Shown: in pieces, positions 15,619 to 58,053 of the stretch
How positions within the stretch are numbered: position 1 is the first letter of the stretch
Layout of the letters: every line of letters begins with the position of its first letter
NCBI RefSeq assembly: GCF_036267815.1
Contig: NZ_DATAVI010000065.1
Coordinates: forward strand, 20,383-84,382
Direction of reading: 5' to 3'
DNA: 64,000 bases
Source: Nocardioides sp.
GTDB lineage: Bacteria; Actinomycetota; Actinomycetes; Propionibacteriales; Nocardioidaceae
Made by a program: the position numbers and the translations under genes
The notes under the pieces: generated by a model
The model's input: the letters and a program-made list of their open reading frames with translations, nothing else
Told to the model about the DNA's origin: nothing
Databases searched by the model: none

Positions 15619-15658
15619 CGCTGACCGGCCAGGAGCAACACCCAGAGTGCTGCCGGAC

Positions 15659-15733
15659 TTCCTGGCCTCTCTTGTCACTTCTTGGCCGCTGCATCCCCCA
15701 AGAAGTGCCAAATCCCCCGCTTCAGCGGGGGTT
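15659..15733. repeat. Double-hairpin dispersed repeat (family 2), intergenic copy
   Basis: TTCCTGGCCTCTC...CACTTCTTGG/CCAAGAAGTG...AATCCCCCGC-TTCA-GCGGGGG; second copy at 52320. Confidence 0.8.
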
Positions 15734-15779
15734 CCGACGAACACCCAGCAGCACAGCAGGCAAGGAGGGGGCGGTCGGG

Positions 15780-50989: not shown

Positions 50990-50999
50990 GGGGGCGAGT

Positions 51000-52208
51000 G
51001 TGCCTGATCACTTCGAGGAGATGTGGCGCGCGATCGCGCCGGTCGGCCGGTCCCAGCGCAGCGGCGGCTACTTCCGGCAGCCCTTGACTGACGCGGAACG
51101 GGAGCTCGACAGCTGGTTCGTCGAGCAGGCCGGGGCGCGTGGCCTGCGCCTGGAGTCCGACCCGTTCGGCAACCGGATCGCCTGGTGGGACAGCGGCTCC
51201 GGGCCTGGCGTCGTCACCGGCTCGCACCTCGACTCCGTCCTCGACGGTGGGGCCTACGACGGACCGCTGGGTGTCGTGACGGCACTGGCGGCCGTCGAGG
51301 TGCTGCGCGAGCGCGGGTTCCGTCCGGCGCGGCCGATCGGCGTCTCGGTGTTCGTCGAGGAGGAGGGCTCCCGCTTCGGTCTGGCCTGCCTCGGGTCTCG
51401 GCTGGCGACCGGCACGATCGCCTGGGAGAACGCCCGCGACCTCAGCGACCGGGACGGCGTACGACTGGACGATGCGATGGCGGCAGCCGGGCTCGACCTG
51501 GAGAATCCCCAGCCCTGGCTGGGATCTGGGGCTATCGGGTGGTTCGTGGAGCTCCACGTCGAGCAGGGGCGCGACCTGGTCGACCGGGGCGCGGCGATCG
51601 GCGTCGCGAGCCGGATCTGGCCGCACGGGAGGTACCGCGTCGAGATCTCCGGGGAGCCCAACCACGCGGGAACGACGCGGATGGAGGACCGCCGCGACCC
51701 CATGCTCACCTACGCGATGACCGCCCTCGCGGCGAACAAGCACGCGCGGCTCGCGGGGCAGCGCGCGACGTTCGGACGAGTCGAGACGACGCCGAACTCC
51801 ACCAACTCCGTGCCGTCGCAGGTGACGGCGTGGCTCGATGCCCGATGCGAGTCGGACGAGGCGCTGGCGGCGCTGGTCGGGACGATCACGCGGCAGGGCG
51901 CCGAGCGCGCGGCGCGGGACGGGACGACGCTGACGGTAACGGCGGAGTCGGTGTCGGGGGCCGTGGACTTCGACCCCGACCTCGCGAGGCGGATCGCCGT
52001 CGACCACGAGTCCGGAGACTGGCCGGTGCTGCCCACCCAGGCCGGCCACGATGCCGGCATCCTGTCCGCGCGCGGGATCCCCAGCGCGATGCTGTTCGTC
52101 CGCAACCCGAGCGGGATCTCCCACTCGCCGGCCGAGCATGCCGAGGTGCCGGACTGCCTGGCGGGGGTCGACGCCCTTGCCGAGACCCTCGCGAGGCTGG
52201 CGTCGTGA
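51000..52208 (+). CDS. M20 amidohydrolase (allantoate-amidohydrolase family), probable N-formylglutamate hydrolase of the hut pathway
   Basis: GSHLDSV, GAYDGPLG, EEEGSRF, ELHVEQG, GHDA; coupled to hutF. Confidence 0.85.
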   Translation: MPDHFEEMWRAIAPVGRSQRSGGYFRQPLTDAERELDSWFVEQAGARGLRLESDPFGNRIAWWDSGSGPGVVTGSHLDSVLDGGAYDGPLGVVTALAAVEVLRERGFRPARPIGVSVFVEEEGSRFGLACLGSRLATGTIAWENARDLSDRDGVRLDDAMAAAGLDLENPQPWLGSGAIGWFVELHVEQGRDLVDRGAAIGVASRIWPHGRYRVEISGEPNHAGTTRMEDRRDPMLTYAMTALAANKHARLAGQRATFGRVETTPNSTNSVPSQVTAWLDARCESDEALAALVGTITRQGAERAARDGTTLTVTAESVSGAVDFDPDLARRIAVDHESGDWPVLPTQAGHDAGILSARGIPSAMLFVRNPSGISHSPAEHAEVPDCLAGVDALAETLARLAS

Positions 52209-53614
52209 CCCGCCACGGTGACCGCGCGTCGTACCTCCTGGAGCGGGCGTGGGTGGGCGGGGCCGTCCGGGACGACGTACTGGTGGAGATCGCGGACGGA
52301 CGTTTCACTTCTGTCACAGTTCCTGGCCTCTCCTCGCACTTCCCGGGGGTTGCAGCGGCCAGTAAGCGCCAAATCCCCCGCTTCAGCGGGGGATTTGACG
52401 GCGGCGGCAGCGGCGGCGAGAGGGGAGACGCGCCCACGCGGCTCGGGGGGCTCACGGTGCCCGGGCTGGCGAACTGTCACAGCCACGCGTTCCACCGCGC
52501 ACTGCGGGGGAGGACGCAGCGCGACCGGGGGACCTTCTGGACCTGGCGCCAGCAGATGTACGACGTCGCGGCGCGGCTCGACCCGGACTCCTACCACGCG
52601 CTGGCGACCGTCACCTATCGCGAGATGGTGGCCGCCGGCATCACGTCGGTCGGCGAGTTCCACTACCTGCACCACCAGCCCGACGGCACGCCGTACGCCG
52701 AGCCGAACGCGATGGGGCTGGCTCTCGTCGAGGCGGCCGGGGCGGCGGGCCTGCGGATCACCCTGCTCGACACCTGCTATCTCAGCTCCGGCTTCGGGGC
52801 CCCGCCCGAGGGCGCGCAGGTGCGCTACGACGACGGGAGCGCGGAGGGCTGGGCCGAGCGCGTGCGCGGTCTGAGCGAGGACGACGGCAGCCGGATCGGC
52901 GCGGCGGTCCACTCGGTGCGCGCCGTACCCCGTGACCAGCTCCCCAAGGTCGTCGAGGCGGCGTCGGGTCGCCCGCTGCACGTCCACCTCTCCGAGCAGG
53001 TCGCCGAGAACGACGCGTGTGTCAGGGAGTACGGCGCCTCGCCGACGCGCGTCCTCGCCGAGGCGGGAGCCCTGGGTGCGCTCACCACGGCCGTGCACGC
53101 GACCCACCTGACTCCCGACGACGTCCGGCTCCTGGGCGACAGCGCCACCTTCTCCTGCTTCTGCCCGACCACCGAGCGCGACCTCGGCGACGGGATCGGT
53201 CCCAGCCGCGCCCTCCATGACGCCGGCAGCCCGCTGACGCTGGGCAGCGACAGCCAGGCGGTGATCGACCCGTTCGAGGAGATGCGCGCGGTCGAGCTCG
53301 ACGAGCGTCTGGCCAGTCAGCGGCGCGGCCACTGGACGGCGTCGGAGCTGCTCGCCGCGGCGACCCGCCACGACTCCCTCGGCTGGGACGACGCCGGCGA
53401 GATCGCGGTCGGACGCCGGGCGGACCTGGTCACCGTCGCGACCGATCGCGTGCGGACCGCCGGCACCGGGGCCGACGAACAGACCTTGGTGTTCGCCGCG
53501 ACCGCCGAGGACGTCACCCACGTGATCGCCGACGGCCGGGTGGTCTTCGTCGAGGATGACCGCGAGCGCCTCGGTCGCGACCTCGACCGGGTCGTCGGCA
53601 GGATCTGGGCATGA
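52205..53614 (+). CDS. hutF: Formimidoylglutamate deiminase
   Basis: [30 protein letters not shown]. Confidence 0.9.
52320..52397. repeat. Family-2 double-hairpin repeat inserted in-frame in hutF
   Basis: Shares both flanks with 15659-15733; perfect 12-bp stem CAAATCCCCCGC-TTCA-GCGGGGGATTTG. Confidence 0.8.
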
Positions 53615-54768
53615 CCGCGACGCTCATCACCAACATCGGCGAGCTGGTCACCAACGACCCCGACGCCGACGACCTGCTCGGCGTCGTCAACGACGCGGCG
53701 GTCGTCGTCGACGGAGCGACGGTCGCCTGGGTGGGCCGCGCGTCCGGTGCGCCGTCCGCCGATGCGCAGGTGGACGCCGGCGGGCGGGCGGTGCTCCCCG
53801 GCTTCGTCGACTCCCACTCCCACCTGGTCTTCGCCGGAGACCGCTCCGCAGAGTTCGCGGCCCGGATGGCGGGTGAGTCCTACGCGGCGGGTGGGATCCG
53901 CACGACGGTGGCCGCGACCCGCGCGGCCAGCGACGATCAGCTCACCAGCCATGTCGCCCGCCTCGTCCAGGAGATGCTCCGGCAAGGCACCACGACCGTC
54001 GAGATCAAGAGCGGCTACGGCCTGACCGTCTCCGACGAGGCACGCAGCCTCGCGGTGGCCCGGCAGTTCACCGAGGAGACGACGTTCCTCGGGGCGCACG
54101 TCGTCCCGGCAGACACCACGCCGGAGGAGTACGTCGCGCTGGTCACCGGCCCGATGCTGGAGGCCTGCGCCCCCCACGCCCGGTGGGTCGACGCGTTCTG
54201 CGAGCGGGGCGCCTTCGACGCCGACCAGTCCCGGGCCGTCCTCCAGGCCGGTGCGGCGGCGGGGCTGCGCGGACGCCTGCACGCCAACCAGCTCGGGCCC
54301 GGCCCCGGCGTGCGCCTGGCCTGCGAGCTGGGGCTGACCGCCGTCGACCACTGCACCTACCTGACCGACGACGACGTCGCGGCGCTGGCCGAGACGGGCA
54401 CGGTCGCGACGTTGCTGCCGGGCGTGGAGTTCTCGACGCGCCAGCCCTACCCGGACGCCAGGCGTCTGCTCGACGCCGGAGCCAGGGTCGCGATCGCCTC
54501 GGACTGCAACCCCGGGTCATGCTTCACCAGCTCGGTGCCGCTGTGCGTCGCGCTGGCGGTGCGGGAGATGGGCATGACCCCGGCGGAGGCGGTCCACGCC
54601 GCGACGGCCGGCGGCGCCCTCGCGCTGGACCGGCGCGACGTCGGCGCGCTGGTCCCCGGCCGGCGGGCCGACCTGGTCCTCCTGGACGCTCCGACGTACG
54701 TCCACCTCGCCTACCGTCCGGGGGTCCCGCTGGTCAGCGGTGTCTGGGTGGCAGGTCGCCCCGTCTGA
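53611..54768 (+). CDS. hutI: Imidazolonepropionase
   Basis: [25 protein letters not shown]. Confidence 0.95.
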
Positions 54769-55113: not shown

Positions 55114-58053
55114 ATGACATCGGAGTTGGTCGGACGAGATGCCGAGCTGGAGCAGCTGTGCTCCACGCTCGGCATCTCTGCGTCCACCGTCCCGGCCGAG
55201 CGGGCCGCTGTCCTGCTCGCGGGCGACGCCGGTGTCGGCAAGACCCGCCTGCTGACCGAGCTCCGCGACCGTGCGGTCGAGCAGGGCTGGCTGGTGCTGG
55301 CCGGTCACTGCCTCGACTTCGCCGACAGCGCCCTTCCCTACCTCCCCTTCTCCGAGATCACCGGCCGTATCTCCCGTGTGCTGCCCGACCTCTTCGACGA
55401 GGTTGCCGAGCGCCACCCCGCCCTGCTCCGTCTGCTGCCCGGCCAGCGGATGTTGAGCAAGGCCACCGACCCCGAGTCGGTCCCCGCCGACCAGGCGGCC
55501 CTCTTCGACGCCGTCCACGCCCTGGCCGAGTGCGTGGGCGAGCGCCAGCGCCTGCTGCTCGTGGTCGAGGACCTCCACTGGGCCGACCACTCGACGCGCG
55601 ACCTGATGAGCTTCCTGTTCGCCCGGGGCTTCGAGTCCCAGGTCGCCCTGGTCGGCTCCTACCGCACCGACGACCTCCACCGCCGCCATCCACTCCGGCG
55701 CCAGGTGTCCACCTGGGTCCGGATGACCGGAGTCGAGCGGGTCCAGCTCGAGCCCCTGCGTCGCGCCGACGTACGTCGGCTCGTCGAGCAGCTCAGCCCC
55801 GAGCCGCTGTCGCAGGAGCGGCTCCGCGACATCGTCGGCCGCGCCGAGGGCAACGCGTTCTTCGCCGAGGAGCTGGTCGGTGCCACGCACGTGCGCACCG
55901 GCCGGATCCCCGAAGACCTCGCCGAGCTGCTCCTGGTCCGGCTCGAGACCCTCGACGACGCCGCGGTGACGGCGGTCCGCGCCGCCGCCGTGGCCGGCCG
56001 CCGGGTCTCGCACGCCGCGCTGACCTCGGTGGTCGGCCTCGAGTCCGGCGACCTCGACCGGGCCCTCCGCGACGCCGTGGACGCGCACGTGCTCGTGCCG
56101 ACCAGTGACGACTTCTACCGCTTCCGTCACGCCCTGCTGGCCGAGGCGGTCTACGACGACCTCCTGCCCGGAGAGCGGGCCTCTCTCCACGCGGCGTACG
56201 TCCGCGTGCTGCTCGACGGTCGAGCCGCCGGCACGGCGGCCGAGCTGGCCCGCCATGCGCGCTTGGCCAAGGACTTCCCGACGGCGCTGACCGCCAGCCT
56301 CCGCGCCGGTGACGACGCGCGCGGTGTCGGCGGCGCGGAGGAGGCGGCCCAGCACTACCTCCAGGCGCTCGATCTGTGGTCCGACGCGCGGCTCCTGGAC
56401 CCGGCGCAGGAGGCCGGCCTCGACTACCCCCGCCTGGTCGGCCTGGTCTCCGAGGCGCTGATCGCGGCCGGTCACCCGGCCCGAGCCCTCGGCGTGGCCC
56501 GTGAGCAGCTCGAGCACCTCCCGGCCGACACCGAGCCGTCGGTGCGGGGGCAGATCCTGGGCGTCGTCGCTAGCTCGCTCTACATGACCGAGACGCTGGA
56601 GGATCCGCTCGCGCTGACCACCGAGGCGCTGTCCTTGGTCCCCGACGAGCCCACCCGTGCCCGGGTGAAGGTGCTGGCGATCCACGCACTGATGCTGGGC
56701 CGCGCGAGCCGCTACGCGGAGGGCCGCGAGGTCGCGATGACCGCCGCGGCCCTGGCCGAGCGGCTCGACCTGCCCCGCCTGGCCAGCGACATCCAGACCA
56801 CCCTGGTGAGTCTCCAGCGCATGGACGGCTCCACCGAGTCGCTGGTCGAGGCCTTCCGGTCCGCGATCGCCGGAGCCGTCGAGGCGGGTGCGTCCAACAC
56901 CGAGCTGCGCGCGCTCCTCCTGCTCGGCAACCATCTCCTCGACAGCGGCGAGTTCGCCGAGGCCGAGGAGACCCTGAGCCGGGCCGTGACCCGCGCGAAG
57001 GCCGAGGGCACGCCCTGGGTGCCCTACGCCGCGGAGGCGCGGTGGCTGCACGCCGTCTCGCTGCGGATGCAGGGCCGGTGGGACGACGCGCTGCGCGTGC
57101 TCGACACCTCCATGGAGGTCGTCCCGCCGATCTACGAGGCCGTGCTGGGCGCGACCAGGGCGCAGATCCTCGTGGGACGGGGAGATCCCGCGGGTGTGGC
57201 GCTGGCGCGCGAGCTGCGCCCGTTCTGGCGCGAGGAGGGGATCGTCGCGACCACCGGCGGCACCGCGGAGCTCGAGGCCGCCGAGCTCGCCGGAGACCAG
57301 GACACCGCCGCCGAGCTGTACCAGCTGATCTGCGAGATGCTCACCAAGATCTGGCACCCGCTCTTCCAGGCCCGGGTGCGACTTGCCTCGGTCACGCTCT
57401 CGGCGTTCGCCCAGGGAGCGGCTCGTCGCAGCGCCGGCGAGCGGCTCGCCGACGCACCGTTCGTCGCGGGGGTCGCCGACGACGCGCACGCCGTCTACGA
57501 CCGCCGCCAGACCCACGCCGGGAGCTCGTGGGGGCCCGAGAGCATGGCCTGGGTCGCCAGGGTCGACGCCGAGCTGCTGCGCTGGCGCTGGGTGGCCGAC
57601 GTCGAGCCGCCGTCCCAGCGCGAGCTCGTGGCGGCCTGGCGCGGCGTCGAGGCCCGGTTCGAGACGTTCGGCTCGCCCTACGAGCTGGCCTCGGTCCGAG
57701 CCACCCTCGCCGAGGTCCTGGCCGCGACCGGCGACACCGCCGGGGCCGACGTCGTCGCCGAGGCTGCGGTCGCGGCGGCCGAGTCGCTCGGGGCCAAGCC
57801 GTTGCTCGCCCGGCTCGGCAGGCCGGGTGCGGCGCCGAGACCGGTCGCCGGGCACGGCGTCAGCCTCACGCCGCGTGAGTCGGAGATCCTCGCCCTGGTC
57901 GCCCAGGGCCGCAGCAACGGCGAGATCGGCAGACAGCTCTTCATCAGCACCAAGACGGTCTCGGTCCACGTCTCCAACATCCTCGGCAAGCTCGGTGCCT
58001 CCGGTCGCACCGAGGCGGCGGCGATCGCCCGACGCGACGGGCTGCTCGGCTGA
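55114..58053 (+). CDS. Large ATP-binding LuxR (LAL/STAND AAA + HTH) regulator
   Basis: LVGRDAE, GDAGVGKT, VEDLHWAD, GNAFFAEEL; C-terminal LuxR HTH. Confidence 0.92.
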   Translation: MTSELVGRDAELEQLCSTLGISASTVPAERAAVLLAGDAGVGKTRLLTELRDRAVEQGWLVLAGHCLDFADSALPYLPFSEITGRISRVLPDLFDEVAERHPALLRLLPGQRMLSKATDPESVPADQAALFDAVHALAECVGERQRLLLVVEDLHWADHSTRDLMSFLFARGFESQVALVGSYRTDDLHRRHPLRRQVSTWVRMTGVERVQLEPLRRADVRRLVEQLSPEPLSQERLRDIVGRAEGNAFFAEELVGATHVRTGRIPEDLAELLLVRLETLDDAAVTAVRAAAVAGRRVSHAALTSVVGLESGDLDRALRDAVDAHVLVPTSDDFYRFRHALLAEAVYDDLLPGERASLHAAYVRVLLDGRAAGTAAELARHARLAKDFPTALTASLRAGDDARGVGGAEEAAQHYLQALDLWSDARLLDPAQEAGLDYPRLVGLVSEALIAAGHPARALGVAREQLEHLPADTEPSVRGQILGVVASSLYMTETLEDPLALTTEALSLVPDEPTRARVKVLAIHALMLGRASRYAEGREVAMTAAALAERLDLPRLASDIQTTLVSLQRMDGSTESLVEAFRSAIAGAVEAGASNTELRALLLLGNHLLDSGEFAEAEETLSRAVTRAKAEGTPWVPYAAEARWLHAVSLRMQGRWDDALRVLDTSMEVVPPIYEAVLGATRAQILVGRGDPAGVALARELRPFWREEGIVATTGGTAELEAAELAGDQDTAAELYQLICEMLTKIWHPLFQARVRLASVTLSAFAQGAARRSAGERLADAPFVAGVADDAHAVYDRRQTHAGSSWGPESMAWVARVDAELLRWRWVADVEPPSQRELVAAWRGVEARFETFGSPYELASVRATLAEVLAATGDTAGADVVAEAAVAAAESLGAKPLLARLGRPGAAPRPVAGHGVSLTPRESEILALVAQGRSNGEIGRQLFISTKTVSVHVSNILGKLGASGRTEAAAIARRDGLLG

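Follow-up and report, generated by a model that had tools for sequence, protein, structure and literature searches.

The window analysed in this work is a 64,000-nucleotide stretch of contig NZ_DATAVI010000065.1 from the genome of a Nocardioides sp., and it contains hutF, the gene of formimidoylglutamate deiminase. Our analysis showed that hutF carries, within its reading frame, one copy of a short two-hairpin repeat which is dispersed through the same genome, and that this copy supplies more than half of an unusually long loop of the enzyme. In other lineages of the genus the same loop is filled with other variants of the repeat. Each hutF element that was tested matched the variant of its own genome, and the loop was found to differ between closely similar alleles over tracts with sharp edges. 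The view that a selfish-looking repeat is read through here in a permissive loop is well supported. As to how this came about, we lean, with limited confidence, towards an old insert which is kept rewritten by homologous recombination.

The repeat copy in hutF and its place in the enzyme

The insert begins after residues GRFTSVT of HutF, and the frame is open throughout the element. Its limits, 52320-52399, were taken from BLAST coverage against the source genome. The segment aligns with an intergenic copy of the window (15659-15738). The two share the 23-mer CAAATCCCCCGCTTCAGCGGGGG without a mismatch, and this 23-mer was absent from all 100 shuffles of the window. A first-pass annotation of this DNA, made from its letters alone, had proposed a palindromic repeat within hutF which adds some 30 residues, preserves the frame, uses atypical codons and matches an intergenic repeat near 15659. 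All of this was borne out. The repeat contributes 27 residues, and the GC content at third codon positions (GC3) is 0.70 in codons 39-65 versus 0.93 in the remaining part of hutF. Within the source genome the hutF copy had 15 scored matches at 89-95% identity; its identity to the family consensus is 88%, within a family range of 87-96%.

Alignment with orthologues, which the same annotation had suggested for defining the insertion, gave a whole loop of 44 residues here versus 10-15 residues in the orthologues of 70 out of 102 species. Where close orthologues have the inserted segment, that segment is itself a repeat copy, and so the idea that they might hold the same segment without a repeat does not apply. 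The part of the loop behind the element is a Gly-rich tail of low complexity. Compared with L191, a metagenomic relative whose HutF is 92% identical, this tail has 72% nucleotide identity and one indel, versus 95% in the rest of the gene; to judge by this comparison, it is a fast-evolving part of the gene. Short tandem repeats likewise follow several intergenic copies of the repeat, for example (GGCAA)n at C29:42900 of the source genome.

The assignment of the gene is clear from profile scores (617 bits with NCBIfam NF006681, cut-off 362; 430 bits with TIGR02022, cut-off 413) and from the match to Pseudomonas aeruginosa HutF (PDB 3MDU, E 1e-63). An AlphaFold2 model was built from 52 orthologues. 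It had a mean predicted local distance difference test score (pLDDT) of 89, and its best structural matches were 4RDV and 3MDU, with template modelling (TM) scores of 0.83-0.87. In the model, strands at residues 8-17, 20-30 and 33-38 have a pLDDT of about 97, while residues 39-77 are coil between the confident strands 33-38 and 78-86, with pLDDT below 50 for residues 45-71. The insert site thus lies between strands 3 and 4 of the N-terminal beta-sandwich, and the mapping onto a structure that the first-pass annotation had called for places the insert in a low-confidence coil, a surface loop by the model. The metal ligands H92, H94, H259, H261, H298 and D349 were invariant in the 52 aligned orthologues. 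By this model, the insert would be a tolerated, disordered loop on the surface, with the catalytic barrel untouched.

The insert is presumably translated as an extra peptide in HutF, because more than 100 alleles preserve the frame and the N-terminal strands encoded upstream of it belong to the fold. The annotation had spoken of a selfish repeat that makes new protein sequence in an essential enzyme. The first part stands, in that a repeat without genes of its own lies in frame in a modelled surface loop; the second does not, as nothing shows that hutF, a catabolic gene, is essential.

These data also bear on whether the insert could be an artefact or belong to a dead gene, that is, whether it reflects an assembly chimera, a pseudogene or a true start downstream of the insert. 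The source genome (G000; 4.16 Mb, 71% GC, 99.96% complete) is a draft of 98 contigs with 3.9% contamination, and in 5 of 109 orthologous loci (L034 of G012, L042 of G013, L075, L092 and L098) the hutF frame shifts exactly in the loop. In L075 the element has a stop in the upstream frame. We suspect indel errors in three of the five, all from the MFD series of metagenome-assembled genomes; real inactivation by an out-of-frame loop change is possible as well. However, an independent metagenome contig contains the same insert, and dozens of other assemblies have it as well. Moreover, every filled allele preserves the frame, GC3 is normal in the 38 codons 5′ of the insert, the strands that these codons encode are modelled with confidence as part of the fold, and all catalytic motifs are invariant. 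An artefact is therefore scarcely credible to us.

The repeat family in the source genome and across Nocardioides

Searched with at most two mismatches, the core of the repeat had 54 forward and 51 reverse matches in the whole source genome, which correspond to about 60 loci, and a control pattern had none. The family consensus is 5′-GACTTCCTGGCCTCTCTTG GCACTTCTTGG GGGTTGCAGCGG CCAAGAAGTGC CAAATCCCCCGC TTCA GCGGGGGATTTG GC-3′. The element is made up of a short 5′ extension, hairpin 1, and hairpin 2 with its 12-bp stem. In the hutF copy the extension, TTCCTGGCCTCTCCTC, resembles an incomplete left arm of hairpin 1. As RNA, positions 52317-52402 fold with −41.9 kcal/mol (z −2.8). Among copies which are otherwise co-oriented, the 12-nt core of hairpin 1 points either way (42 of the GGTTGCAGCGG type and 24 of the CCGCTGCAACCC type), and its orientation differs between the two copies of the window (15684-15699 versus 52345-52360). 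Since the core occurs both ways in co-oriented copies, hairpin 1 appears to flip as a whole inside the element.

About half of the units consist of the 5′ extension, hairpin 1 and hairpin 2. The others are a longer, perfect-looking palindrome of roughly 95 bp, made of hairpin 2, hairpin 1 and an inverted hairpin 2. Examples of these palindromes are found at C2:13235-13324, C1:5877-5966 and C59:12342-12431, and many of them begin 10-40 nt 3′ of a stop codon in a terminator-like manner. Of all the family loci in the source genome, hutF is the sole one with an open frame and coding signal on both sides.

A search of 60 other Nocardioides genomes did not turn up the variant of the source genome. 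In each of the eight genomes tested (G000, G006, G014 and G041-G045), the element in hutF matched the repeat variant of that same genome. The hairpin of G014 matched 19 times in G014 and not at all in three other genomes; that of G006 was found at five places (three forward, two reverse), in G006 only. The hutF elements of G041-G045, which include N. szechwanensis, N. endophyticus and N. speluncae, had 6-74 matches in their own genomes at 85-94% identity over the full length. Exact boundaries of the elements were obtained from alignment with these own-genome copies. In G014 an 81-bp element stands in place of the entire ancestral loop. In N. speluncae the whole element is reversed, its non-palindromic tail included, and the N. 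endophyticus group has a three-hairpin form in the loop.

HutF loops had 10-15 residues in 70 of the 102 usable species genomes, 16-24 in 10 and 25-44 in 22. Among the 119 nearest homologues from a large, metagenomic protein collection, 85 had loops of at least 25 residues, 10 had 16-24 and 24 had at most 15. All long loops are open and in frame, and their DNA forms two hairpins whose stems vary by species. P0101, a metagenomic HutF, has a 54-residue loop in which the part encoded by hairpin 2 occurs three times (RRFTGDPNGAV RSTGDADRGV RSTGDPDRGV); hairpin 2 is, by its sequence, apparently amplified in tandem inside that gene.

An alignment of eighteen elements from nine genomes, taken from hutF and from intergenic sites, revealed strong covariation, with 92% of cells paired versus 33-53% with the partners slid. 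Across species, both sides had changed in 15 of the 22 stem pairs (8/11 in hairpin 1 and 7/11 in hairpin 2). A covariance model built on this alignment detected the two-hairpin superfamily in 47 of 60 genomes of the genus. Applied to 347 kb of hutF neighbourhoods, it matched 20 of 83 loci, and all matches but one lie inside the hutF loop (15 forward, 1 reversed and 2-3 ambiguous three-hairpin forms). In many genomes the hutF loop is empty despite 20-60 family copies, and this holds for an entire clade of 13 members; among the family-rich ones are G008 (45 matches), G018 (32), G020 (60), G022 (42) and G023 (36). Relic inserts with decayed hairpins were found in G016 (29-residue loop, one family copy) and G021 (25-residue loop, no copy).

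The agreement between hutF copy and own-genome variant in 8/8 genomes might mean that the hutF copy is a master, kept vertically, from which the intergenic copies of each genome descend; its position inside a gene would shield it from deletion. However, the superfamily is abundant (32-60 matches) in the five genomes just listed, whose hutF loop is empty, and the genomes with relic inserts have 0-1 copies. In addition, the hutF copy of the source genome is among the more diverged members of its family. As a general rule the master copy is contradicted by the 20-60 copies that the covariance model finds in empty-loop genomes, and in any form we consider it very improbable.

Table 1. Coordinates of hutF, the repeat copies and adjoining features in the window.
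Feature	Coordinates	Strand	Remarks
Repeat copy in hutF	52320..52399	+	One 80-bp two-hairpin repeat copy
Codons 39-65 of hutF	Base 52319 + 52320-52399	+	27 residues supplied by the repeat copy
5′ extension TTCCTGGCCTCTCCTC	52320..52335	+	Common to 27 to 33 genome copies
Hairpin 1: GCACTTCCCGG, core GGGTTGCAGCGG, CCAGTAAGCGC	52336..52369	+	Stem partly decayed in the hutF copy
Hairpin 2: CAAATCCCCCGC TTCA GCGGGGGATTTG	52370..52397	+	Perfect 12-bp stem
Low-complexity remainder of loop, Gly-rich tail	52400..52438	+	13 residues; equivalent of the 17-residue loop TPGGGDPGSHGEPAPLP in element-free close relatives (loops of L062 and P0018 compared)
hutF, formimidoylglutamate deiminase	52205..53614	+	469 codons, intact
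Codons 1-38, three N-terminal beta strands of small beta-sandwich domain	52205..52318	+	Upstream of insert; conserved in orthologues
HxH metal-binding motif H92-S93-H94	52478..52486	+	27 codons downstream of element
Upstream M20 Zn-amidohydrolase gene	51000..52208	+	NF006770 556 bits, cut-off 372; true start near 50990
hutI, imidazolonepropionase	53611..54768	+	TIGR01224 376 bits, cut-off 298; start overlaps hutF stop
Second window copy	15656..15738	+	Intergenic; hairpin-1 core in opposite orientation
Neighbours of second copy			Convergent pair: 1106-aa ORF ending 15618; acyl-CoA dehydrogenase-like minus-strand ORF ending 15780

The TGA stop of the upstream M20 gene overlaps the GTG start of hutF (GTGA), and the gene order is the same in L191. 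NCBIfam names the M20 product allantoate amidohydrolase; it is probably the hydrolase on the formylglutamate side.

Positional conservation of intergenic copies was considered and rejected. The site orthologous to the 15.66-kb copy has no copy in G010, the closest relative searched (89% amino acid identity), and unrelated terminator-like hairpins are present there in other species. Another long palindrome (CTACTGGTGTGTACGACGCG...CGTCGTACACACCAGTAG) lies 3′ of the acyl-CoA dehydrogenase stop in L145, L148 and L150 (G019, G005 and G047), and in G061 this position is taken by a further pair of hairpins; all of these seem to belong to other repeat families of the genus. Three copies of the source genome (C10:~850-935, C24:~1750-1825 and C47:~55930-56010) have in common a longer upstream flank, CTCGG..C.CTCGACGACGCGGAC, which may belong to a larger composite repeat or to a gene end that is repeated beside the element.

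Turnover of the loop and its candidate causes

The first-pass annotation had regarded the insert as the result of one event, confined to this genome. This did not hold: L191, on an independent contig, has an orthologous copy, whose element is 95.1% identical versus 94.8% in the rest of the gene, and most close relatives hold a variant of their own at the same place. Two allele pairs, each about 96% identical over 1.9 kb, show how the loop changes. In one pair, filled versus empty, the empty allele has the ancestral-type loop EVGGAAEGADPLP, and 81-85 nt of element replace 27-31 nt. In the other pair both alleles have 35-residue loops with different variants; the tract in which they diverge is about 110 nt long, has sharp edges and includes 12 nt of the strand codons of hutF itself.

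We propose, as the account that somewhat outweighs our doubts, that an old insert in a permissive loop has been kept rewritten by homologous recombination. The insert would be old in a large part of Nocardioides, and the site would have been long occupied because in a working gene only in-frame, stop-free changes survive. Rewriting could follow two routes. One is gene conversion from the dispersed copies of the same genome, which would keep the hutF copy like the local variant; the other is allelic exchange of short hutF patches among related lineages. In-frame deletions may then give the intermediate and short loops, with at least one further insertion event, and where the family becomes extinct in a genome, the hutF insert would remain as a decaying peptide loop. 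In its favour stand the match of hutF elements to the own-genome variant, the orthologous copy of L191, which has diverged as much as the gene around it, and the tracts in the two allele pairs. The relic inserts of G021 and G016 also suggest that hairpin structure at hutF itself is not under selection, which we list in favour of this account. A further sign of recombination may lie in the 60-nt flanks (the region from −114 to −60 being spoiled by N-terminal indels), in which filled alleles resemble each other about 5 points more than they resemble empty ones, while a reference segment has equal identity; this comparison is exploratory and confounded by relatedness.

Several observations weigh against it. 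No conversion tract could be traced from a named intergenic copy as donor to a hutF recipient. The reversed element of N. speluncae and the three-hairpin form of the N. endophyticus group need events beyond plain conversion. When mapped on a tree of the 119 homologues from which the loop was left out, presence and absence of the insert require at least 27 changes, and element-free alleles with the ancestral-type 13-residue loop adjoin filled alleles. Neighbouring filled and empty alleles therefore demand much allelic exchange or many fresh insertions.

A string of rare codons, TTC ACT TCY GTC ACN (hutF codons 35-38), stands just 5′ of the element in G000, L063, L064, L033, L034 and P0017. The C-terminal parts of HutF of these alleles fall in different clades, and element-free alleles use ACG or ACC and TCG or TCC. 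The string may mark a shared filled haplotype.

Fresh insertions could also be the rule. A mobilising activity would then keep placing the current variant of each species in a hutF target, site- and orientation-specifically, a possibility that we regard as real but doubtful. It would fit the confinement of the covariance matches to the hutF loop and their mostly forward orientation, the filled alleles that adjoin ancestral-type loop alleles at about 96% identity, and the match of hutF copies to the own-genome variant. It would also fit the reversed copy of N. speluncae, which is a separate event because it carries the non-palindromic tail of the family. However, a profile search of the source genome for the RAYT transposase (PF01797) gave no match, while six control genomes were matched. 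A DUF559/Vsr-like nuclease was considered as partner and dropped, since the single weak match (PF04480, 21.3 bits) lies on contig C23, which has no family copy. Neither terminal inverted repeats nor a target-site duplication were seen on inspection of 64 copies with their flanks and of the filled and empty allele pair, no formal search having been run. The only motif common to the element end and the gene is CTTCCTGGCC, which occurs at the 5′ end of the element and at the LPGL codons of hutF. As a specific target mimic it was rejected: it has 143 occurrences in the genome, 108 of them away from repeats, and these are mostly ordinary Phe-Leu-Ala codons. The many copy-rich genomes with an empty hutF loop, the 13-member clade among them, also speak against recurrent insertion. 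So does the finding that the new element replaces the old loop with no addition to it, and that the replaced tract includes hutF-specific codons.

In a broader form, the HutF loop might be a preferred landing or exchange site, where an orientation-specific process, driven by an enzyme or by hairpin-templated switching of replication, installs the current variants; we entertain this only tentatively. If it were true, the hutF loop would be a natural trap for finding the mobility mechanism of REP-like elements (repetitive extragenic palindromic) that lack RAYT.

A third reading is that the hairpins are kept for the hut operon, with selection favouring occupied alleles. Located about 115 nt from the start of hutF, they might signal pausing or processing of the polycistronic mRNA or affect its stability. 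The stable fold, the occupancy of 85/119 among the nearest relatives, the compensatory changes that keep the stems (15/22 pairs) and the start/stop overlaps of the genes, which suggest coupled expression, are in agreement with it. But the covariation belongs to the whole, mostly intergenic family and not to the hutF copies, and hairpin 1 is already degraded in the hutF copy of the source genome. Our scan for promoters and terminators found no such site, an Rfam scan of the region gave sub-threshold chance matches only, with no family at threshold, and 70 of 102 species do without the insert. A regulatory role is unlikely above all because hutF hairpins decay, with peptide length kept, where the family is gone (G016, G021).

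Comparison with known repeats and enzymes

HutF of P. aeruginosa (3MDU, 3MDW and 4RDV) belongs to the same family and has the same fold and HxH motif, and it differs from the Nocardioides protein in its loop. The P. aeruginosa loop presumably has 13 residues, RPDANADGAERLG, of which our alignment shows only the ADGAERLG end, versus 44 in Nocardioides.

Among repeats, intragenic elements of the type of miniature inverted-repeat transposable elements (ERIC, Coxiella QMITE1, PMC5896051, and Correia-type elements) resemble the Nocardioides element in being small, non-autonomous and occasionally fused in frame to open reading frames. However, no terminal inverted repeats or target-site duplication were seen on inspection of the Nocardioides element, and no parent insertion sequence was identified.

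REP and REPIN elements with RAYT transposases are short GC-rich hairpins which number tens to hundreds per genome, lie mostly between genes and often just after stop codons, and have variants that differ between related strains (PMC3686654, Nunvar et al. 2013; PMC3733652, Di Nocera et al. 2013; REPORTH, 10.1101/2024.10.14.618302). The Nocardioides repeat is similar in its short GC-rich hairpins, mostly intergenic, and in its variants per lineage. Some of its copies form larger inverted doublets that may be comparable to REPINs; these are one long palindrome (hairpin 2, hairpin 1, inverted hairpin 2) and not two simple REPs. The repeat differs in that the source genome lacks RAYT, and by inspection of the consensus GACTTCCTGGCCTCTCTTGGCACTTCTTGGGGGTTGCAGCGGCCAAGAAGTGCCAAATCCCCCGCTTCAGCGGGGGATTTGGC neither hairpin carries a terminal GTAG or CGTC tag. 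In addition, the Nocardioides unit is a fixed pair of two different hairpins with a non-palindromic extension. Published work on palindromic repeats of Nocardioides was not found in our literature search.

Intergenic repeats normally cannot be followed between species because their surroundings do not stay alignable, a limit that is named in the REPORTH preprint (10.1101/2024.10.14.618302). The hutF loop, in contrast, stays alignable and gives a fixed anchor from which a REP-like repeat can be traced throughout a genus. The own-variant matching, the sharp tracts, the relics and the reversed copy observed there bear on the uniformity of repeat families within genomes and on their turnover between species.

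In behaviour, the closest parallel is with the Rickettsia palindromic elements (RPEs; Ogata et al. 2000, 2002, via PMC10969869) and the related Wolbachia elements, which are dispersed palindromic repeats without genes that also lie in frame in genes of enzymes. RPEs are about 100-150 bp long, are found in dozens of genes of reduced intracellular genomes, and add a peptide in a surface loop without breaking the fold (PMC10969869). Like them, the Nocardioides repeat is palindromic, dispersed in many copies and inserted in frame, without stops, in what the model predicts to be a surface loop. The comparison concerns behaviour: no sequence relation to RPEs was seen, though no RPE sequences were compared, and membership of RPE-1 to RPE-10 is not claimed. 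The differences are that the host is a free-living actinobacterium of 71% GC, that the element has 80 bp, and that only 1 of about 60 loci in the source genome, hutF, lies inside a gene. In-frame palindromic repeats are already known, and a further example adds little. The novelty lies in the site: a single enzyme loop which is occupied across a genus by genome-specific variants, replaced in place. The literature searched gave no description of such a site, for RPEs or otherwise. HutF of Nocardioides also illustrates the amount of foreign, disordered sequence that a metabolic enzyme can bear in the long term.

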